A stretch of DNA of 64,000 nucleotides from Eledone cirrhosa (lineage: Eukaryota), in assembly GCA_964016885.1 (NCBI GenBank), contig OZ024742.1, forward strand, positions 193,688,001 to 193,752,000, written 5' to 3'. The notes beneath the pieces were generated by a model. That model searched no databases. It was not told where the DNA came from and was given only the letters and a program-made list of their open reading frames with translations. Made by a program: the position numbers and the translations under genes. How positions within the stretch are numbered: the stretch's first letter is position 1; each line of letters opens with the position of its first letter. Below, piece by piece: positions 7,336 to 52,294 of this stretch.

Positions 7336-10300
7336 AAGATGAATACTATATCCGACAGTAATGTCACACCTACAGTCAGGTTGAATAACTGGTTATTCTT
7401 CTAACTATCCCTTCTGAAGACACCTTTTATTCGAATTCGTAGAGATATCCGACTAAATACATAATTCATTTTACAAGGATTTGCTACAAATAGCATGGCT
7501 GAACACAACATCAACAACAAAATTAAGGAAGTACCGAAGACAAATAACAAGTAAGGCAATCAAACTTTATTCAGTTGTAGCTACAGAAGAAACCGAAATT
7601 ATAAATCGCATTTCTCTTGGAGTTGCGAACTTAATAATGATTTATTTAATTGTTATAAAATGGCAAAAAACAATCCCTCCATTGGCTATATGAATAGAAT
7701 GAAGCTACACTGGGACGAAATGCACCCAGAGCTAAATTATTTCACAGCGAAGCAATTACGCCAACAAGCGACGTTTGTTGAACGTAAAAATAAGATAAAT
7801 ATTATTAATTGTAAGTCCCCAACAACAAACATGTTATCAACAACATGTACTACAGGTCGCCATGCTACTAGACTTCCTAGCAGCCAGGTCGAACAGCGCC
7901 TTGAAACAACTATACCTGTAAGAAATTTGACACCACTTGTACCATCTAAGTCTACCTCGAATGCTGGGGAAAACACTATCGATAATAATAATAATCGAAG
8001 AAATAATAATAATTGTTTATACGTTAGGCACAAGGCCAGCAATTACCCAGTGTATTACTGGTACTTTATTTTATCGACTCCGTAAGGATGAAAGGCAAAG
8101 TTAACCTCGGCGGGATTTGAACTCAGAATGGTAAGGGCCGTAACTCTATGCGCCAAAGCATGGCATCCAACACTCTACCAATACTGCCAATCCACCGCCG
8201 TAGAAATAATAATAATAATCGAAGAAAATTGACACCACGTGTACCATCAGAGTATATCTCGACTATTGTGGAAAATACTATCGATAATGATAATAATTGT
8301 TTCTACTTTAGGCACAAGGCCAGCAAATTACCCACTGCATTGCTGGTACTTTATTTTATCGACCCCGTAAGGATGAAAGGCAAAGTCAACCTCGGCGGGA
8401 TTTGAACTCAGATCGTAAAGGGACGTAACTATGCTGGAAAGCATGGCGTCCGACCCTCTACCGATACTGCCAATCAACAGTATAAACAATTGAAATTTTC
8501 CCTCAACGAAATCTTCCAGAGAGAAATTCATTCATATATATAAATATCTCTCTTGCTGAACGTATTAAAACAACAATATTTTATAAAAATAAAAAAAAAT
8601 AATGAAATATTACGTGTTATTGAAGAAATAGGGGAGGAATATTTACGACAGATAAAAACCCCAACATTTTGGCAAATCAACGCCTGTTTATATGCCTTAG
8701 CAATGACAGTGACGCATTATCTTGGTGGTAGCAGAGATATTAACAAAAACAGAAAACCAACTAAAATACCATCATATATAACTAAAATAGAAAACACTAT
8801 TGCTGACCTACGAAAAACCAAACAAACACCAAAAAGCCTCTCTCCTCACCAACACAGAGTGAAAAATAAAATAGAGACGATGTTTGGTAACAGTAGAACC
8901 AGAACTCTCCAATATAAGCTGATCACCCTCAAACCAGAATTGAGAGCTGTTAGCGAAAAACGCCGATACCTGAAAGAGGTAGATGAGAGAAAAGTGCTTA
9001 ATAAAAGATTCAGACGAAACCAAACATCAGTCTATAGAGATATGAAGGACAAAATAATAAGTGTCACTGAGGTCCCATCCCAGAAAGACATAGATTCCTT
9101 TTGGGGCAAAATATAGGGTGAAAAGATTAATTTCAACCAAGATGCAGTGTGGCTGAGAGAAATCCGAAAGAACTATTGCTCCTACACTACAATAAAAACT
9201 TAGGAAATAAGTGAGGGTACTCTTGAGGCTGTGTTAGGAAAACTCCAAGATAAGAAAACACCAGGAAGAGACATGATTGTCGGCTACTGGTACAAAAAAC
9301 TGATATTCTATCGGAGGCATCTTACTGACCTCTACCAACAAGTTCTTAAGGGAGATACACTTATACCAGAATGGTTGACATTAGCACAAACATTACTGGT
9401 ACCCAAGAACAAAGACACCCACTTGGCCAAAAATTACCGACCCATTGCATTCCAGAAACTGATGTATAAGATGTATACAGCCTGCCTGAACCTATTCCTC
9501 CAAGATCACTGTGAAAATAATAACATCATCACAGATGAACAAGCAGCTGGTAAGAAAGGGGTTTGGGGATGTGCTGAACAACTCCTAATCAACAAAACTG
9601 CGATGTCGGAGGTGCGACAACTTAGGAGGAATATGGCTACAGTCTGGTTGGACTACAGGAAAGCTTTCGATTCTGTTCCCCACTCTTGTATGATAGAGAC
9701 CCACCAACTTGCTAAAGTCCCAGACATTATTGTCAGAGCCATAGAGAGGCTGTCTTCTTCTTGGGCTACTATCCTAATGTTAAAGACAGGGAGGGAGGAA
9801 TCTATTTTCACTGATAAAATAAAATATTGCAGAGTTATATTTCAGGAGGACAGTCTCTCTGTGATATTATTCATCTTGTCATTAAGCCCCTTGTCCTTTC
9901 TGATCAAGAAATGTGAGGGATACATTATTGGCTCAGAGGAGGACAGAAATACGAACACAACCCATACTTTCTTTGTGGACGATCTGAAACTCTATGCCAA
10001 GAACATGGTTGGGATGAAGAAAAATCTTGACCTGGTTACAACGTTCTCAAAGGATATAGGAATGGAATTTGGCCAAGATAAATGCTCATATGTGACTGTG
10101 AAGTGGGGAAAAACAACAACCCAATCTAGCAACATTGTCATCAATGGCCTAACTATTTCACCGATATCTGATGAGGGCTGCTACAGATACCTGGAGATAG
10201 ATGAGAACATAGATGTACATAATATGAAAGAGTACTGGTGGAATGTTCTAGTAAAAACCCCAATAAAATGCAGGCATAACAGACCAGATACTATGATATG

Positions 10301-10852
10301 GGACAGGTAGAAGAAAGCATGCACAGTAGTGGAAATCAGCTGCCCAGCAGATGCCATTATAATATCAAGGATTAGTGAAAAGGAGAATATTTATGCAGAA
10401 CTAATGAGAAATATGCAGATACTCCACCCTGATTAAACCTTCAGAATTATGCCTGTAATTATTCGGGCACTGGGGTATGTTAGTGACTGCCTCAATAAAA
10501 ATTTTGAGAAGCTAGGCTTCACAGGAACAGAAAGAACACAGCTAGTTAGGAATTACAAGTACAATCCATTAATGGAACAGTAAAAGTATGTAAAACATTC
10601 CAGAAATTTTGCATCTAATAACTGCATATACACATGTACAGATACAAAGCATATACACATGCACACATACAACTCAAAACATATACATTCAAACATACAA
10701 TAACATCCATATCTACACATGCATGCATACATATCTACCTAGTTGATGTTGTGCAATTCCAATCAGAGAGTCTTGTGTATATGCTAGAAACCGACTCTCT
10801 CTCTATTTTGTGAAATTTTGTGAAATTATGTGAAATTATAAAACCAGAAGAA
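7336..10852 (+). mobile_element. Decayed R4/Dong-like non-LTR retrotransposon (RT + REL endonuclease), family A, internally deleted
   Basis: N-terminus GYMNRMKLHWDEMHP...KQLRQQ; RT NYRPI, LDYRKAFDSVPH, FQEDSLS, FFVDDLKL (ORF 9231-10310); REL HNRPD...VEISCP. Contains stops. (TACA)n lies on both sides. Confidence 0.87.
8010..8476 (-). mobile_element. Two tRNA-derived SINE copies within a ~300-bp tandem duplication inside the R4-like element
   Basis: ggcacaaggccagcaa...atcgac.ccgtaaggatgaaaggcaaag...ggcgggatttgaactcag occurs twice; the preceding flank (ttgacaccac.tgtaccatc...actatcgataat) is also duplicated. Confidence 0.8.
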
Positions 10853-30763: not shown

Positions 30764-33700
30764 ATTTCTTTATTGGCCACAAGGGCTGACATCAAGAAAA
30801 ACATTACAGATGGAACAGGACGCTATAGGACGGTTAGAGGTGTGTTTTGCGCGTGTAAAAATTGTTATTATTTATATAAAAAAAGAAAAAAAAAGACAGA
30901 GAAACATATATATATATATAAACAATAAAAATGAAAATTTAAACAATGAAAAATTCCCCAATAACCTCTAAGGGTTACTCGTGGCGAAAACCGCACAAAA
31001 GACCACGGCTACCCTGACCACCAGAAAGTGCCCTCTCTCAATTTTTCCATTTCTCAACCTACAGGCGTATATTCAGAGCGGTCCCGTTCACTCGGACCAT
31101 TCTCGCTACATTCACCCTACTTTCAACAAACTTGCTAGAAGGCAAGTCTTGCCCCTCCACCCTGATTTTCCTCTTCAAGTGAAATTTGAAAAAGTTAATT
31201 AGGGATTCGCCGAAGAGGAAAGTATCTGTCTTTAACGCATTCAACCTTGTCCACCACACAATCTCTTTCGCCTTGGCCAGCAGACAAACGAAAACTGCCG
31301 TCCCTTCATCCTCGAAGGAAGACAGCGAGACCATCTGCACAATGGACTCAGTCGATACACGGATCAGTCCTACACGCGACAGCAACTGTTCGACATAGCG
31401 TCTCAAGTCAGCAATTCTCGGGTCTGAACGAGTGCTTGCACGACGGTTTCGTCGCTCTGCGTGCCCCTCGGACACTTCCATGCCAGTAGAGTTATCCTGA
31501 ACCGACAACGTTCCCCAGTAGTACTGCCAGACCAGGGATTTTTGGAAGTTATCCATAGGCCCTTCGCTGAAAGTTCTCCCGAAGAGAGTAAACAGCTGAT
31601 CGTCTTCGACGCCCAGGACCTCCCCTCCATTAGTCCTCTATAGAACGCCGAGGTGGATGTTCCACCAATACTGGTGCCCAGCTGGCAGAGGGCAGTGAGC
31701 GCCTGGAGACATTCCAGTTTCCAAACGCTATCCCTCGGTCTTTACCTGACCCAGTACTGCAGCTCCGTCAAGGAGACGAGCCGTAGGAAAACGTGCCTGG
31801 AGACGACGACCACACCTGTTCACCGTCAAGGAAGCACCAGAAATGTCGCAGCCTCAGCGCATGTTTGTGCATCATCAGCCATGGCATGCCCTGTTCTCCA
31901 CGCATCGTGTGTTTACAGAAGATGGATCGTCTGAACATGGGAGCGAGTCCCTTCCACAAAAAGCGGGAGAGGAGGTGCTCCATTTTGGTGAGAGTTGGGT
32001 CGGGGCAAGGGACGACGGTGAGGCGGTAGCAGATGATGGATGCGATGTACGCATTCGACACCTCCGCCCGGCCTTTGAGGGACATCTTCCTCTAGGCCCA
32101 TTTCTGGGTGAGGCAGGCCACCTTGCTCGTCACATCGTTCCAGTTTTTCTCCATCTGGAGGTCCGATCCGAACCAGACCCGAGCAATGTAACCGGTGCGT
32201 CCGTACAACGCCCCACGACGCTGTCGGGCGGCATGGACTTGCCTCTCCAGGTGCCATGCTGCAAGCCCACCGATTTTCCTGGTTTATCTTTGCTCCTGTC
32301 ACCGCTTCGTATTCCTTGAGAGCGGTGAAGGAGCATCTGGACGTGTCTGGTGCTCGACAACACCATGGTGACGTCGTCGGGGCAAGCCGACTCGGATTTC
32401 CCGCATCCTAGTCGGCGTGGGACGCCCCTCATCGCCCCCAGTTTGTACAGTAACAGCTCGAGAGCCAATACGTACAAGAGGGACGAGAGTGGACAACTCT
32501 GGCAAACCGAGCGCATGATGCTGAACGGCTGCGACAGGTGACCGTTCACCCTCATAACTGAGCAGATGTCGCTGTACATCGCAGCGATCCAAGCCCTGAA
32601 AACGGGCCCGAAACCGGCTGCCTCGAGCCCCGCCTCCAGGTAGTGATGGTCGACCCTATCGAATGCTTTGGATTGATCCAAGTTGATCAGGGCCCCACCC
32701 GTGCCAGGTTCCCTAACCACCTTCTCTATGATGTATCGCATGAGGTGGAGGTTGTCGTGTATGGATCTGTCCGGAATTGCGCATGTCTGCGCCTCTCCCA
32801 CCAGACCCTTGATGACAAGCGCCAACCTCGTTGCAAACACCTTGCCCAAAATCTTCGTTTAGCAGGGTTATGGGCCTGAAGTTATCGATAACATCCCCCT
32901 TGTTCGGGTATTTTCTCAGAAGCGCTACCGCTCCCCGGGTCACAAAACTACAAATGCTCCCGTTCTGCTGCCAGTTGCAGTAGACGTCTGCCAAGAGGTC
33001 ACCGAACAAGTCTGGCATAAATTCATAAAGCTCGTTGGGCAGACCATCCGATCCTGGCAATTTACCCCTCGTGCAGTTAGCCATCGCTTCCCGTATCTCA
33101 CCAGCTGTTATTGGCTTTTCGGAAAATTGTGCTGCGGTCGTCGAGAGCCGAGGCAGTCCATCGAGGTATGCACTGAAGTCCATAGCCCTATCCGGCCGAC
33201 CGCTGCTCCCGAACAAGCAACACTTGTCCGTTTTGCTCAGACAAAGACCGAATTGTGGCTTTGTTGCCACGTCACGCCTCTGCCACCCGGGCCCATTGGA
33301 CGGCGTTTGTCCCCTCGTGCTTTAGAGCACGCGCTCTAGCTCTGACAACGCAGCCTTCGTGTTTTGCGTTGAAGAATTAGTCGAGTGCCAATCTCGCCGC
33401 AAGCTCGTCGGTTGTGATGCCTGTCCTAAACGCCTCTTCTAGCGTTCTGACTCGCTCTCCCTCTCCTCTATTTTCTCTATCACTAGTCCTTTGCTAAACC
33501 TTATCGACTCTACTTTAATTGCCCTTTTCAGGGCGAACCACCACATGTTGTTAGGACCGCTCCCGTCAACGCCCGCTTAGCTAATCCGGTATTTGTAGGC
33601 TTTGCGCACCGGAAAAGACGCGTTTAGCTTCCAGTAACCGGGTCCTTGTCTATGGAGTCAGTCTATGTCGATCTCACAGATCACAAAATTGATGTCTGTG

Positions 33701-38473: not shown

Positions 38474-38538
38474 TATTTTGTCTGATGAAAGCATACCATA
38501 ATTTAACATGGTATCCTTGAAATATGTATAATAAAATA
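38474..38538 (+). ncRNA. Type I hammerhead ribozyme
   Basis: tattttgt CTGATGA aagcataccat-aatttaac-atggtatcctt GAAA tatgta TA ataaaata. Confidence 0.82.
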
Positions 38539-42989: not shown

Positions 42990-43135
42990 GTGTGTGTGTG
43001 TGTTTGTGCGTGTGTGTTTATATACCTTTATATTTACTATTTTTTCTCCCTTTCTTCTTCTTCCTCCACGCCTCACTTTCATATTTATTATATTTTTGTT
43101 TTGCAAATCCACTTTCAATAGATACACCAGGATTT

Positions 43136-43195
43136 TTTCATTCTGATGAATGAAGGCAAATGTGTTTCCTTTTAAGAAACCACTGGTAAATGAAA
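43136..43195 (+). ncRNA. Type I hammerhead ribozyme
   Basis: tttcatt CTGATGA (tgaagg.aaa/ttt.cctt stem II) GAAA ccactgg TA aatgaaa; perfect 7-bp stem I. Confidence 0.8.
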
Positions 43196-43365
43196 TAATT
43201 ATCTTATGTTGTTTATTACATAACTGTATATATATATGTATATATATGAATAGTTAATAAATGTAACAAACAAAACACAAGAGGCAATTCTACACAGTTA
43301 TATTACATTCACTATTGGTACGTGTGGTTTCAAGTCCATATATATATATATATAAATACATATAA

Positions 43366-43459
<94 letters not shown>

Positions 43460-43504
43460 CAGGAAAGAAGGTTTACATGGTTTGCTATACAAAAAAGTTT
43501 TTAA

Positions 43505-43623
43505 TCACATAGCTTACATTTGTTTCACTAAACTGGTATGTCTAGAGATCGCTATCCGCCTAATTTTGCGTCACTCGATCGCCAATACAGAATTATAACC
43601 AGTCAGATCTTCGGAGCATGCGA
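43505..43623 (-). ncRNA. Variant type I hammerhead ribozyme in inverted pLTR
   Basis: Reverse complement of 46611-46729. Confidence 0.7.
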
Positions 43624-43984
43624 GAATGAAGAAAATACACAGGCAAGAAAATAAAAGAAAATATGGAGTAGTTATGGCATTCAATTAGAACAATAAACAA
43701 CAACAATTATTACAACAATGCTATCAATAAACTATTTAAGGAGACCCTGACATTACTTAGGTGGGGGGTATATAATGTATCTAATGTTACGGCGTGAAAA
43801 CCAGCTGTCATAAGGCAAAAAGTATCGTAGTGTGTATCAATTTTAAATTATAAAGATAAGCTAGTTTTTACAGTCTTTCTCTTCATCTTCAACCGTATAC
43901 ATGAGTGGGACCACTGTCAAAGCTCAATAGTTGTAGAGTTAATACAGAGGTTAACGAATTAATATACGCATATATCTACGCACG

Positions 43985-44024
<40 letters not shown>

Positions 44025-46207
44025 CATATACACATATATGTGTACATAGACACATACATACACACTAATATACACTCGTACAAAAATATACATACATGCA
44101 AAGAGAAAAGCGTGCTAATTGTAATATGGCAAAAAGAAGGTAAAGTAACATTGTAGTAGTGAAATGAGAAAAACTAGGATCTAGGATCAAATGATTGCAG
44201 CAGCTGAGAAGGAGTAAGATTGTTGGTAGATGAGGTATTTACAGACTATTGTGTGGTATAGACTTGTGAAGGAAATAGTATACTTAATGAATATATATTT
44301 TTTTTTTTGTGGGTAGTAGGTATCCTAATTTAAAGCTATGTTATGTTGGTTCGATTCACGGAGGTTTGAATCTTATGAATTTAGTGGCTATTCTATGCCT
44401 GCAGAAGATAGATCTTTCTAACTTATTATTAAGTAGTCTTTTAACATTTCTAAGGATATACAATAGCTCAAGATCACACAGCCCGCAATAGGACATACCT
44501 GTACTATAGGTTTTAGCAGCCGACAACTTCGACCAGTTGATAGTGTAGCTAGCGTTGCTGTCCTTCAATTCCCATATTTTTCTGGCGAGGGTGGTGGAAC
44601 CCATAAGAGCTCGGTTTTTCATCGAGTGCCTGTGCACATACCATCTTTTCTTAAAAGAACCCGCGGTGGATCCTATGTAATTCCAAGTGGAGTTACCCGA
44701 GATGACAGTGCACATGTACACCAGACTCGAATCGAGACATCTATTCGCCAATGGGCACCTATCTGGGAGGTGACAGTTGCAGTTTGAGGCGCTATTATGT
44801 GCAGATTTTACATTCCTATTTAGTACCCTGTTATAAGTGGGTTGTGATATATGCCCAATGGGGTTTTGCTGCTGCGCGTTTGTATGCGCTTGTGGTTGTG
44901 ATGTTGTGATGAGTTTGTGCTTATGTATAGGTGCAATTGATTTACTTGAGATATTTCTGCGGTTGATCTTGCGTATGTGTGATTCTATGTTAGCTGCTGT
45001 TGAAAAAGAGAGTTTTATAGTAGATCTATTGAGTAGTTTGTGATATCTATGCGAGATAGGGAAGTGTTTATCTATTAGTTTAAAGAATATAGAGGGCAGT
45101 CTAGTTTTTATAGAGGAGTTGAATATTGGGTTGAACCATAGGTATTTCCTTTGTCTGTTTCTTCTATTGTTTCTAGGGTTTACGTTATTAGTGTTTTGGC
45201 CGTTTACTCTAGGTGTTACATGTCTAACCCTATGTCTAGTCAAGCTATTCTTATTATTATGTGAGCGGTTGGAGTAGAAATTACTAGGATTGTTTATGTT
45301 GTCCTTATTCACTATATACTGTAGTTTATCTTTATGACCGAGCCTACTTAATGCTGCATTATAATAGTCAGCATGCTCGTTAAAGATTTCTAGGTTTGAG
45401 GATAGGCGGGATATTCGGAGGGATATACTACGTGCTATGGATTTAATTATGGATTTGGGGTGATTTGAGTTGTAACTAATGTAGGCAAGATTTTCATTAT
45501 TTTTGTGGAAAGGTTCTATTAATCCAGTATTTAGATTTAGAGTTACATCTAGAAAATTTACCTTCTTATGGTTTAGTTCGTAGGTAATACTTAGGCACTC
45601 GATGAAAAACCGAGCTCTTATGGGTTCCACCACCCTCGCCAGAAAAATATGGGAATTGAAGGACAGCAACGCTAGCTACACTATCAACTGGTCGAAGTTG
45701 TCGGCTGCTAAAACCTATAGTACAGGTATGTCCTATTGCGGGCTGTGTGATCTTGAGCTATTGTATATCCTTAGAAATGTTAAAAGACTACTTAATAATA
45801 AGTTAGAAAGATCTATCTTCTGCAGGCATAGAATAGCCACTAAATTCATAAGATTCAAACCTCCGTGAATCGAACCAACATAACATAGCTTTAAATTAGG
45901 ATACCTACTACCCACAAAAAAAAAAAAAAAAAAATATATATTCATTAAGTATACTATTTCCTTCACAAGTCTATACCACACAATAGTCTGTAAATACCTC
46001 ATCTACCAACAATCTTACTCCTTCTCAGCTGCTGCAATCATTTGATCCTAGATCCTAGTTTTTCTCATTTCACTACTACAATGTTACTTTACCTTCTTTT
46101 TGCCATATTACAATTAGCACGCTTTTCTCTTTGCATGTATGTATATTTTTGTACGAGTGTATATTAGTGTGTATGTATGTGTCTATGTACACATATATGT
46201 GTATATG

Positions 46208-46251
<44 letters not shown>

Positions 46252-46610
46252 TGCGTAGATATATGCGTATATTAATTCGTTAACCTCTGTATTAACTCTA
46301 CAACTATTGAGCTTTGACAGTGGTCCCACTCATGTATACGGTTGAAGATGAAGAGAAAGACTGTAAAAACTAGCTTATCTTTATAATTTAAAATTGATAC
46401 ACACTACGATACTTTTTGCCTTATGACAGCTGGTTTTCACGCCGTAACATTAGATACATTATATACCCCCCACCTAAGTAATGTCAGGGTCTCCTTAAAT
46501 AGTTTATTGATAGCATTGTTGTAATAATTGTTGTTGTTTATTGTTCTAATTGAATGCCATAACTACTCCATATTTTCTTTTATTTTCTTGCCTGTGTATT
46601 TTCTTCATTC

Positions 46611-46729
46611 TCGCATGCTCCGAAGATCTGACTGGTTATAATTCTGTATTGGCGATCGAGTGACGCAAAATTAGGCGGATAGCGATCTCTAGACATACCA
46701 GTTTAGTGAAACAAATGTAAGCTATGTGA
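46611..46729 (+). ncRNA. Variant type I hammerhead ribozyme in 5' pLTR
   Basis: Stem I tcgcatgct/agc(t)atgtga; core CCGAAGA; 81-nt stem II closed by ctgactggt/accagtttag; GAAA; stem III caaatg; GUA cleavage triplet. Confidence 0.7.
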
Positions 46730-46999
46730 TTAAACACTTTTTTGTATAGCAAACCATGTAAACCTTCTTTCCTGATTTATTATTACTCCAAGTGTTTACA
46801 ACATAGGAATTACAGCATACCCGCAGCATCACTATGAAAACGCCTTGTTGAGTCAAACCAAGCCAAGCGTTAATATCATCCACTACCTGGAATACCATAA
46901 CTGGACTTCACCTAAGTGGACTGCATTTAACTATTATTTGTTAATCCGTATATTTAGCTCCCACCTGGTCGAGCAACACCATTAACGCACGGCAACAAC

Positions 47000-49384
47000 A
47001 TGGAGAAGCACTGTATAGGTATGTCACTAAAAAACATACCTGTACCTACAAAAAAGGACTATACACTGGGCATGATACGACGGACTAATGATTTCATCCG
47101 CAGGGTCCGATGGAAAGCTTACCATTTCGATAAGGGACCGAATACCAACAGAAGGGAATTTTCCAAGGAGAATTACGGGTTTAAATCCTGCAAAAACCCG
47201 CCAAACAACCCCGCACTCGATGCCTTCGAGCTGGACCTTATGAACATGATAAGTGAAACTAAATTTAAAAAAAGAACAAATCACAACAAATTGCAAAATG
47301 ACTTAAACACATTACTTAAAAAACTAAAAGACACTAACGGTATCATAGTAAAAGCAGACAAAACATCAAACGTATACTCTATGGACATTAACACATACAA
47401 TAACTTTATTCAGCGTGAACTACATAAAAAATATAAAAAAACAAATGAATCTACACTCACCAGCATAAACATGGAGGGCCTCAAGATAGTTAACAAACTC
47501 GGAATTTCAGATAGGACCGAACCGCTTACCCCGTGCAACCCTACATTTAACCTGAAAGATCACAAAAATAACTTTGAAACTAATCCTACCATTAGATTAA
47601 TATGCCCATCCAAGTCAGACATAGGTAAAATTAGCAAAAACATTCTAGATAGGGTAATCGCACAAATAAAGGGTAAACTAGAAATCAATCTATGGGGCAA
47701 CACTAACGAGGCAATTAAATGGTTCAATAAAATACAAAATAGGGATACGTGTAACTTCATACAATTTGATATAGACGACTATTATGCATCCATATCCCCA
47801 GCTACCCTAGATAAGGCGCTTATATTTGCCCAAAATAACTCTGATCTTACCCATGATGAAATTGAAATAATAATAGCGGCTAGAAGGACTATCGTAAAAT
47901 TTGAAAATAACTACTGGGTAAGAAAGGATAGAATAAATAGCTTCGATATTACAATGGGTTCAAATGATTCTGCGCAAATTACAGATATCGTGGGGCTATT
48001 CATAGCACACAACCTACATAAGGAATTCAGTAACCTCCAAGGAGGAATTTATAGGGACGACACGTTACTTATAGCTAGGAACCTAAACAACCAGAGCATG
48101 GAAAGACTAAGGAAAAATATTAGAATATTCTTCAAAAAACTAGGCCTAAGTATTACCTACGAACTAAACCATAAGAAGGTAAATTTTCTAGATGTAACTC
48201 TAAATCTAAATACTGGATTAATAGAACCTTTCCACAAAAATAATGAAAATCTTGCCTACATTAGTTACAACTCAAATCACCCCAAATCCATAATTAAATC
48301 CATAGCACGTAGTATATCCCTCCGAATATCCCGCCTATCCTCAAACCTAGAAATCTTTAACGAGCATGCTGACTATTATAATGCAGCATTAAGTAGGGCC
48401 GGTCATAAAGATAAACTACAGTATATAGTGAATAAGGACAACATAAACAATCCTAGTAATTTCTACTCCAACCGCTCACATAATAATAAGAATAGCTTGA
48501 CTAGACATAGGGTTAGACATGTAACACCTAGAGTAAACGGCCAAAACACTAATAACGTAAACCCTAGAAACAATAGAAGAAACAGACAAAGGAAATACCT
48601 ATGGTTCAACCCAATATTCAACTCCTCTATAAAAACTAGACTGCCCTCTATATTCTTTAAACTAATAGATAAACACTTCCCTATCTCGCATAGATATCAC
48701 AAACTACTCAATAGATCTACTATAAAACTCTCTTTTTCAACAGCAGCTAACATAGAATCACACATACGCAAGATCAACCGCAGAAATATCTCAAGTAAAT
48801 CAATTGCACCTATACATAAGCACAAACTCATCACAACATCACAACCACAAGCGCATACAAACGCGCAGCAGCAAAACCCCATTGGGCATATATCACAACC
48901 CACTTATAACAGGGTACTAAATAGGAATGTAAAATCTGCACATAATAGCGCCTCAAACTGCAACTGTCACCTCCCAGATAGGTGCCCATTGGCGAATAGA
49001 TGTCTCGATTCGAGTCTGGTGTACATGTGCACTGTCATCTCGGGTAACTCCACTTGGAATTACATAGGATCCACCGCGGGTTCTTTTAAGAAAAGATGGT
49101 ATGTGCACAGGCACTCGATGAAAAACCGAGCTCTTATGGGTTCCACCACCCTCGCCAGAAAAATATGGGAATTGAAGGACAGCAACGCTAGCTACACTAT
49201 CAACTGGTCGAAGTTGTCGGCTGCTAAAACCTATAGTACCAGTATGTCCTATTGCGGGCTGTGTGATCTTGAGCTATTGTATATCCTTAGAAATGTTAAA
49301 AGACTACTTAATAATAAGTTAGAAAGATCTATCTTCTGCAGGCATAGAATAGCCACTAAATTCATAAGATTCAAACCTCCGTGA
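47000..49384 (+). CDS. Penelope-like element polyprotein: reverse transcriptase + C-terminal GIY-YIG endonuclease (Hydra-clade-like), intact 794 aa
   Basis: Uninterrupted ORF. Motifs: N-terminal SLKNIP and KADKT; RT FDIDDYYASI, ITMGSNDS, IYRDD, NFLDV; thumb SNHP; CNCHLPDRCPL (CxCx5C); LVYMCTV...NYIGST...FKKRW (GIY-YIG); CGLC. The clade call rests on recalled motifs, not a phylogeny. Confidence 0.93.
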   Translation: MEKHCIGMSLKNIPVPTKKDYTLGMIRRTNDFIRRVRWKAYHFDKGPNTNRREFSKENYGFKSCKNPPNNPALDAFELDLMNMISETKFKKRTNHNKLQNDLNTLLKKLKDTNGIIVKADKTSNVYSMDINTYNNFIQRELHKKYKKTNESTLTSINMEGLKIVNKLGISDRTEPLTPCNPTFNLKDHKNNFETNPTIRLICPSKSDIGKISKNILDRVIAQIKGKLEINLWGNTNEAIKWFNKIQNRDTCNFIQFDIDDYYASISPATLDKALIFAQNNSDLTHDEIEIIIAARRTIVKFENNYWVRKDRINSFDITMGSNDSAQITDIVGLFIAHNLHKEFSNLQGGIYRDDTLLIARNLNNQSMERLRKNIRIFFKKLGLSITYELNHKKVNFLDVTLNLNTGLIEPFHKNNENLAYISYNSNHPKSIIKSIARSISLRISRLSSNLEIFNEHADYYNAALSRAGHKDKLQYIVNKDNINNPSNFYSNRSHNNKNSLTRHRVRHVTPRVNGQNTNNVNPRNNRRNRQRKYLWFNPIFNSSIKTRLPSIFFKLIDKHFPISHRYHKLLNRSTIKLSFSTAANIESHIRKINRRNISSKSIAPIHKHKLITTSQPQAHTNAQQQNPIGHISQPTYNRVLNRNVKSAHNSASNCNCHLPDRCPLANRCLDSSLVYMCTVISGNSTWNYIGSTAGSFKKRWYVHRHSMKNRALMGSTTLARKIWELKDSNASYTINWSKLSAAKTYSTSMSYCGLCDLELLYILRNVKRLLNNKLERSIFCRHRIATKFIRFKPP

Positions 49385-49723
49385 ATCGAACCAACATAAC
49401 ATAGCTTTAAATTAGGATACCTACTACCCACAAAAAAAAAAAAAAAAAAATATATATTCATTAAGTATACTATTTCCTTCACAAGTCTATACCACACAAT
49501 AGTGTGTAAATACCTCATCTACCAACAATCTTACTCCTTCTCAGCTGCTGCAATCATTTGATCCTAGATCCTAGTTTTTCTCATTTCACTACTACAATGT
49601 TACTTTACCTTCTTTTTGCCATATTACAATTAGCACGCTTTTCTCTTTGCATGTATGTATATTTTTGTACGAGTGTATATTAGTGTGTATGTATGTGTCT
49701 ATGTACACATATATGTGTATATG

Positions 49724-49767
<44 letters not shown>

Positions 49768-50128
49768 CGTGCGTAGATATATGCGTATATTAATTCGTTA
49801 ACCTCTGTATTAACTCTACAACTATTGAGCTTTGACAGTGGTCCCACTCATGTATACGGTTGAAGATGAAGAGAAAGACTGTAAAAACTAGCTTATCTTT
49901 ATAATTTAAAATTGATACACACTACGATACTTTTTGCCTTATGACAGCTGGTTTTCACGCCGTAACATTAGATACATTATATACCCCCCACCTAAGTAAT
50001 GTCAGGGTCTCCTTAAATAGTTTATTGATAGCATTGTTGTAATAATTGTTGTTGTTTATTGTTCTAATTGAATGCCATAACTACTCCATATTTTCTTTTA
50101 TTTTCTTGCCTGTGTATTTTCTTCATTC

Positions 50129-50247
50129 TCGCATGCTCCGAAGATCTGACTGGTTATAATTCTGTATTGGCGATCGAGTGACGCAAAATTAGGCGGATAG
50201 CGATCTCTAGACATACCAGTTTAGTGAAACAAATGTAAGCTATGTGA
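50129..50247 (+). ncRNA. Variant type I hammerhead ribozyme in 3' pLTR
   Basis: Copy of 46611-46729. Confidence 0.7.
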
Positions 50248-50465
50248 TTAAAAACTTTTTTGTATAGCAAACCATGTAAACCTTCTTTCCTGATTTATTA
50301 TTACTCCAAGTGTTTACAACATAGGAATTACAGCATACCCGCAGCATCACTATGAAAACGCCTTGTTGAGTCAAACCAAGCCAAGCGTTAATATCATCCA
50401 CTACCTGAAATACCATAACTGGACTTCACCTAAGTGGACTGCATTTAACTATTATTTGTTAATCG

Positions 50466-50558
<93 letters not shown>

Positions 50559-51468: not shown

Positions 51469-51952
51469 TTGATAGTTCCATCGATCAAAACAAAAATGTT
51501 AAAAATGCGGAAAAGACGGTGATGTATATTATTTTCCAATTAGTATAGCCGACAGGATATGTCACATACATACGCTAACCTATAGAATGGGATTGTCATT
51601 TCATGTGTTCTAAACTGGCAGATTAACCGAGATAAAGTCGGCTCCATTCTTATTCTTGCGATACTGAATCAACCAAGAGTAAAGTAACTAATGCGAAATA
51701 AATCTGATTTTATTATTATGATTTCTGTTAAAGGGCGCTGGATTGGCAGTATCGATAGAGTATCAGACACCATGCCTTGCAGCGTAGAATTATGGCCATT
51801 TATGGTCTGAGTATAAGTGTTTGTGCGTGTGTGTTTATATACCTTTATATTTACTATTTGTTCTCCCTTCCTTCTTCTTCCTCCACGCCTCACTTTCATA
51901 TTTATTATATTTTTGTTTTGCAAATCCACTTTCAATAAATACACCAGGATTT

Positions 51953-52012
51953 TTTCATTCTGATGAATGAAGGCAAATTTGTTTCCTTTCAAGAAACCAC
52001 TGGTAAATGAAA
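51953..52012 (+). ncRNA. Type I hammerhead ribozyme (duplicate of 43136-43195)
   Basis: Same core and stems. Confidence 0.8.
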
Positions 52013-52252
52013 TAATTATCTTATGTTGTTTATTACATAACTGTATATATGTATATATATATATGAATAGTTAATAAATGTAACAAATAAAACTCAAGAG
52101 GCAATTCTACACAGTTATATTAGGTTCACTATTGGTACGAGTGGTTTAAAGTCCATATATATATATATATATAAATACATATAAATATATATATGTATAT
52201 ATATAAATATATATATATATACTGTATATATATAAATATATATATATATATG

Positions 52253-52294
<42 letters not shown>

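Follow-up and report, generated by a model that had tools for sequence, protein, structure and literature searches.

A predicted hammerhead ribozyme with a C at core position 4 and a stem II of 81 nt in the terminal repeats of a young Hydra-clade Penelope-like element

The window analyzed here is a stretch of 64,000 nucleotides from the 3.0-Gb, microsatellite-rich genome of Eledone cirrhosa. Comparison of the window with itself delineated the insertion of a Penelope-like element (PLE) in which a hammerhead motif is present in three copies. The features are as follows.

43454 to 50473, no strand assigned: whole insertion, consisting of an inverted truncated copy, a 5' pLTR, an ORF, a 3' pLTR, and a (TA)n end (window self-comparison)
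43454 to 45596, minus strand: inverted 5'-truncated copy (window self-comparison)
45593 to 46956, plus strand: 5' pLTR (window self-comparison)
47000 to 49384, plus strand: intact RT-GIY-YIG ORF of 794 aa, Hydra-clade PLE (motifs read in the translation)
49109 to 50473, plus strand: 3' pLTR, ending in (TA)n (window self-comparison)
46611 to 46729, plus strand: hammerhead copy 1, in the 5' pLTR (core and local fold)
50129 to 50247, plus strand: hammerhead copy 2, in the 3' pLTR (letter-identical to copy 1)
43505 to 43623, minus strand: hammerhead copy 3, in the inverted 5'-truncated copy (letter-identical to copy 1)
46611 to 46619, plus strand: 5' strand of stem I, pairing with 46720–46729 in a 141-nt fold
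46620 to 46626, plus strand: 5' half of the core, CCGAAGA (C3, C4, G5, A6, A7, G8, A9), with U4C at 46621
46627 to 46707, plus strand: stem II arm, 81 nt (local fold and pairing conserved in relatives)
46659 to 46682, plus strand: internal loop A(G/U)U...YAG (46659–63 and 46678–82), closed by the covarying pairs 46657–46684 and 46665–46676
46708 to 46719, plus strand: 3' half of the core GAAA, stem III ACAAAUGU, and A17, with the predicted cut after 46719
46720 to 46729, plus strand: 3' strand of stem I, with one bulged U (141-nt fold)
46729 to 46734, plus strand: AUUAAA hexamer at +10 from the cut, resembling a poly(A) signal, with a U-rich run after it (putative function)
46780 to 46956, plus strand: tail between two fixed 3' ends, with ACTCC, GTTGAGT, TCCA, and TGGA motifs (putative role, by analogy with PMC11167929)
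4029 to 4073, 38482 to 38530, 43143 to 43188, and 51960 to 52005, plus strand: hammerhead-like motifs with a CUGA core (stem II range for the eight such motifs, 14–30 nt)
3305 to 3261, 38302 to 38254, 57478 to 57448, and 61065 to 61032, minus strand: hammerhead-like motifs with a CUGA core (same stem II range)

Both the translation of the ORF and the layout of the insertion are those of a Hydra-clade PLE. The protein contains RWK, DKT, a CxCX5C linker, and C-terminal CxxC, CxH, and GIY-YIG motifs, the first five of which are given as marks of this clade in section 11 of PMC8557442, and it is homologous to Hydra-1_Obim in an alignment judged by eye. The insertion combines pLTRs, an inverted 5'-truncated copy, and integration at (TA)n. 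No match to the ORF was obtained in Pfam at a threshold of 0.001 or in a PDB search. A genome search returned many copies of the family that are 99–100% identical with the full reading frame open, indicating that the family is young. A (TA)n/(TG)n microsatellite lies inside the 3' UTR of the element (approximately 46170–46260 and 49670–49780), as it does in a more distant family, designated F. The insertion is flanked on either side by a 94% direct repeat carrying a short-arm hammerhead (43001–43459 and 51818–52283); these are perhaps the terminal repeats of another PLE, which served as the target. Two further RT fragments were detected in the window with Pfam RVT_1 (9204–10310, plus strand, and 32130–32858, minus strand).

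A first-pass annotation had proposed that a variant ribozyme is common to the three pLTR copies. The motifs at 46611–46729, 50129–50247, and 43505–43623 are indeed identical to the letter and, since all belong to one insertion, are not independent. Every letter of the type I core CUGANGA...GAAA...UH is matched, except for the C replacing U at position 4, and three helices surround a core that is open at stem I. The local fold reproduced the annotated elements, including stem I (9 bp with a single bulged U), the unpaired CCGAAGA in place of CUGANGA, and the nested pairings named for the 81-nt stem II. Stem III is minimal, as annotated (2–3 bp, ACAAAUGU), and the predicted cleavage site is the GUA at 46717–46719.

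The window copy by itself is not unusually stable (z of 0.11 for 141 nt and of −1.63 for the arm). At 46704, most of the family copies examined have C, but the three window copies have in common a private T, which weakens the base of their arm (pair probability of 0.16 with the T versus 0.76 with the C). In a 231-nt context, the predicted probability of stem I falls to about zero because its 3' strand folds with a competing downstream hairpin, although stem I could still form during transcription. The core has no terminal loop 2 close by; a candidate for the contact with loop 1, by position only, is the asymmetric loop 8–9 bp out.

Stem III of the window family is also weak. Its outer three pairs are palindromic with a mismatched central AA, and its self-duplex was calculated at −0.7 kcal/mol, versus −6.4 kcal/mol for ACAAUUGU, the stem III of sister families. 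The outer three pairs are palindromic in all 22 family representatives, including one family in which an A-U pair is replaced by G-C. ACAAUUGU is present in 17 of the 22 representatives, most of these 17 having been selected by that pattern. The weak stem III of the window family is derived.

Relatives were collected independently of the ribozyme by a protein search, which returned families whose first 300 aa are 67–100% identical to those of the window protein and was the sole basis for retrieving 40 loci. A search with arm sequences alone detected an arm homologue in 38 of the 40, and in none of the 38 was the arm shortened to a small hairpin. The cores CCGAAGA, CCGAUGA, CUGAUGA, CUGAGGA, CUGAAGA, UUGAAAA, and CUGAUGU were observed among the relatives. 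In particular, sister families with 82–87% protein identity have the same arm and the canonical CUGAUGA core. This homology, together with covariation in the arm, argues at the sequence level that the motif is a variant hammerhead, as had been proposed.

The arm is built from a U.U base, a proximal helix of 8–9 bp, an asymmetric loop, a middle helix, a symmetric 5 × 5 loop, and a capped 3-bp helix. To assess its conservation, 106 unique motifs with 74–84-nt arms were reduced to the 83 of the near clade, leaving out 23, and then to 57 rows by removal of near-copies. With the fold of one family copy, 81% of the cells were paired across the 57 rows, versus 28–47% when the fold was slid by 1–3 columns. 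Changes on both sides were found in 17 of the 24 arm pairs, a result equalled in 6 of 500 shuffles, with the reservation that the rows are related and that kinship inflates the counts. The covarying pairs include 46657–46684 (CG in 30 rows, UA in 24), 46654–46687 (GC in 25, AU in 21), and 46665–46676 (AU in 25, GC in 19), and in the proximal helix the register of the four inner pairs shifts from one subgroup to another. Covariation across related families had been suggested as a check in the first-pass annotation; in a tree-aware mutual-information test, the compensatory changes did not reach significance (best E of 0.36 over 6670 pairs in the 57 rows). RNAalifold kept just 6 pairs on the same rows. 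End-to-end pairing of the arm (probability >0.5) was found in 21 of 22 family representatives, with arms of 61–94 nt, and in 145 of 1320 shuffles. As these families can barely be aligned, this is stronger evidence than the pair counts from the 57 rows. Five of 17 folded arms had a z below −3.5. An arm of 94 nt branched into two hairpins (z of −5.6) was observed at L066:334-427 and in loci L102, L122, and L124.

The possibility that the ribozyme is an ordinary working PLE hammerhead, with an arm that is a neutral insertion folded merely to spare the core, appears improbable. Hammerheads tolerate varied stems according to PMC3088659, and the arm does vary both in length (61–94 nt) and in shape, to the point of branching in one family. 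However, neutrality does not account for the unpaired letters of the internal loop, which are kept at A46659 (55 of 57 rows), U46661 (56), A46681 (56), and G46682 (52) and recur at 55–60% protein identity, nor for the retention of a long arm in every one of the 38 protein-selected homologues. Similar loop letters were recognized by eye in the distant families E, F, G, I, and J.

The loop of the window family also places UGAC opposite GGAU, and the first-pass annotation had drawn attention to opposed GA dinucleotides. These dinucleotides are present in the window but not conserved: at 46662–63, G and A are found in 43 and 42 of the 57 rows, respectively, whereas at 46678–79 they are found in only 10 and 7. 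A SECIS-like or kink-turn fold of the arm around this quartet is highly improbable, even though some Naiad PLEs are described in PMC8557442 as carrying a SECIS, because the GA pairs are not conserved in the 57 rows. A SECIS was rejected since the helix above the quartet has 3 bp, the quartet is not conserved, and the ORF has no in-frame UGA. For comparison, approximately 11–12 bp are needed in the SECIS helix above the quartet. A kink-turn was rejected since the loop is symmetric (5 × 5) without a 3-nt bulge and the GA pairs vary.

Variation in the core was assessed genome-wide. Patterns combining a 70–95-nt spacer and stem III ACAAUUGU, which leave the window family (ACAAAUGU) outside the counts, gave 3854 matches with C at position 4, 3571 with U, and 347 with a purine, versus 3, 1, and 10 matches, respectively, for reversed-pattern controls. 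The long-arm motifs with C4 or U4 are thus far above chance. Among the 100 purine matches listed, many were upstream look-alikes in a family whose own core lies further in, and none represented a purine lineage. By these counts, position 4 behaves as a site restricted to pyrimidines. For the window family itself, an exact 34-mer with positions 4 and 7 left free had 587 matches in the genome, and position 4 was C in all 100 of the matches listed. On a tree of the 57 rows built with this column removed, the U/C character required 12 changes, of which 8 were forced by well-supported branches (mean of 18 for shuffled characters); no direction was readable, and part of these changes may be mutations of single copies after insertion. 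Most of the 57 rows had been picked by a core pattern, and the conservation of the core in this alignment is therefore circular.

Other core positions also vary. Family F (approximately 60% protein identity; loci L031-L035, L054, L055, L057, and others) combines stem III ACGGUCGU, a 75-nt arm, and the same internal loop, and 24 of its 27 matches have the core UUGAAAA, in which U3 is compensated by A8. The U3-A8 variant is known from Schistosoma PLEs, as described in PMC4209133. The A9U core CUGAUGU was found in 4 matches in 3 protein-selected loci that are close relatives (L037, L053, and L063); genome-wide, the A9U pattern gave 2001 matches (19 for controls) from several mixed families, including close relatives. 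A6U, with or without U4C, was present in 49 of the 100 matches listed among 1758, and loci of the A6U family encode proteins 29–47% identical to that of the window. A large family (L149, L180, and L183-L192) has the core CCGUCGA, i.e. U4C plus A6U, with an intact 61-nt arm, and relatives with CUGAGGA and CCGAGGA. Very short head-to-head insertions, both arms of which are cut inside the hammerhead or just upstream, were observed in the pairs L103/L104, L112/L113, and L177/L178.

Natural core variants of this kind are reported to be impaired. According to PMC3088659, a U4C viroid variant had reduced activity in vitro and retained infectivity (Ambros and Flores, 1998), and section 8 of the same source describes low activity for an A6C variant. 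The amplification of relatives with the uncompensated substitutions A9U and A6U suggests that catalytic selection is perhaps relaxed. A hammerhead descendant that no longer cuts in the window family, with its fold, mainly the arm, kept for protein binding or RNA stability while the core decays stepwise, is nonetheless a rather unlikely account. The amplified A6U and A9U lineages retain their stems, the weak stem III is derived, and for PAc, the Poseidon element of Anolis, PMC11167929 reports both hammerhead mutants that still insert in vitro and an absence of reads ending at the cut site, all of which would fit such a decay. Against it, no family consensus among the protein-selected loci departs from G5, G12, A13, A14, or A15.1-U16.1, the change at C3-G8 in family F is compensated, and no purine lineage was found at position 4 among the 100 matches listed.

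We therefore consider it probable that the motif is a type I hammerhead with U4C and an 81-nt stem II, located in the repeat of a young Hydra-clade PLE, and that it cuts slowly after 46719, either as a dimer only or with the help of a protein. Preservation of the arm fold while several letters of the core drift points to cleavage that is probably slow or aided by a protein, and to a probable separate function of the arm. We read this pattern as one of weak, assisted catalysis, with partly relaxed selection on the predicted ribozyme. As shown by the conservation of structure, the arm corresponds to the usual 7–9-bp helix II of PLEs with the loop replaced by a further rod of 50–60 nt, which likely acts as a folding or protein-contact module propping up the weak core.

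The sequence downstream of the predicted cut is also conserved. Of the 22 representatives, which are related and not independent, 18 have an A[AT]TAAA hexamer beginning 1–10 nt past the cut, versus 2 of 176 background windows; the AUUAAA of the window copy (46729–46734) overlaps stem I at its end. Cleavage would part the RNA that bears the ORF from this neighboring poly(A)-like signal, a subject on which a literature search listed only a review. The pLTR end had been placed about 60 nt from the GUA, and this position fits the inverted copies of the family, which end at +60 to +64 (6 of 40 rows), but not the forward copies, which end at +234 to +238 (27 of 40 rows, the query having favored the longer end). 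Of the other rows, 4 continue into the ORF, and the remaining 3 are truncated at the edge of the locus. (TA)n was found within 330 nt in 169 of 206 motif matches, at +40 to +69 in 78 and at +180 to +249 in 68.

By analogy with PAc, whose two RT start sites correspond to fixed 3' ends (PMC11167929), the two fixed 3' ends are likely two RT start points. Reverse transcription would then start approximately 60 and 235 nt downstream of the cut, and new copies would likely derive from RNA extending past the hammerhead. The tail between the two ends (46780–46956) possibly forms an RT-binding structure. ACTCC, GTTGAGT, CGTACG, TCCA, and TGGA motifs are kept in tails down to approximately 58% protein identity (L060, L089, L134, L031, and L042); RNAalifold returned no pairs on 29 tails, and a tail structure therefore rests on motifs seen by eye. 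The arm had been suggested as a binding signal for the RT. Its fold is conserved, but a separate conserved tail lies downstream, and in PAc, the one PLE studied in vitro, the protein requires RNA downstream of the hammerhead (PMC11167929). The tail is for these reasons the better candidate, and binding of the RT more likely occurs there than in the arm. An extension of this model, which we hold as tentative, is that the hammerhead is shifting from a free ribozyme to a protein-dependent RNP module: the A(G/U)U/YAG arm would dock a protein of the element that rescues or replaces a core drifting through U4C, A9U, and A6U, and the cut beside the poly(A) signal would switch the RNA between mRNA and transposition template.

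The expectation that standard descriptors would miss the motif holds for the published core descriptor of Craig et al., given in PMC8557442 as cuganga with a 7–17-nt spacer. An Rfam search returned no hammerhead match for the motif. A U4 sister and, in the same window, a short-arm hammerhead had no match either, indicating that the Rfam miss is not specific to the variant. Among the matches listed for the whole window (150 of 325), almost all were matches of microsatellites to miRNA models. The window contains eight more hammerhead-like motifs with CUGA cores and stems II of 14–30 nt. Descriptors that require CUGA and a short stem II overlook thousands of motifs in this one genome.

Hammerheads of Hydra-clade PLEs are already known (Craig et al., 2021), and the present motif shares with those described in PMC8557442 the type I topology, a location close to the 3' terminus of a Hydra element that inserts at (TA)n, an additional U flanking helix II on both sides, and a short, near-palindromic stem III. 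It differs in having CCGA and 81 nt. In File S2, CUGA is present in each of the 26 Hydra rows, in which the two halves of the core are never more than approximately 24 nt apart; the maximum arm length of the whole table is 53 nt, in a plant PLE-X element. With the minimal metazoan PLE hammerheads of Cervera and De la Pena (2014), as presented in PMC4209133, it shares the position in the pLTR, a helix II of 7–8 bp, palindromic outer pairs in stem III, and, in family F, the U3-A8 variant. The hammerheads presented there act by a dimer mechanism with low activity in vitro and, unlike that of the window, are described with neither U4C nor a long arm; stem I is longer in the window (9 bp plus a bulge). 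The core change is identical to that of the natural U4C viroid hammerhead (Ambros and Flores, 1998, as stated in PMC3088659), which is one variant, whereas here the change is fixed in whole retrotransposon families, in thousands of copies and with repeated switching. As described in PMC11167929 (Frangieh et al., 2024), PAc is similar in that its hammerhead precedes a tail delimited by two fixed 3' ends, and in its AT-rich targets. In PAc, the hammerhead overlaps the start of the ORF and cleaves only with the protein; its mutants still insert in vitro, and no reads end at its cut site. In the window element, the distance from the hammerhead to the ATG is 280 nt. The window tail is approximately 175 nt, versus 30–40 bp for PLEs in general in the same source, and is preceded by a long arm. 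A literature search listed no paper on U4C or on a stem II of 60–95 nt in PLE hammerheads; such examples may be present in Lunse et al. (2017), in Ambros and Flores (1998), or in the supplements of PMC4209133 and PMC3088659. The function of PLE hammerheads is presented as an open question in PMC8557442 and PMC11167929. The present analysis adds the alternation of U and C at position 4, a succession of altered cores, and the hexamer resembling a poly(A) signal. Since U4, C4, U3-A8, A9U, and C4 plus U6 occur as a natural series on one conserved long arm, in young and intact elements of a single genome, the need for cleavage and the contribution of the arm are directly testable.
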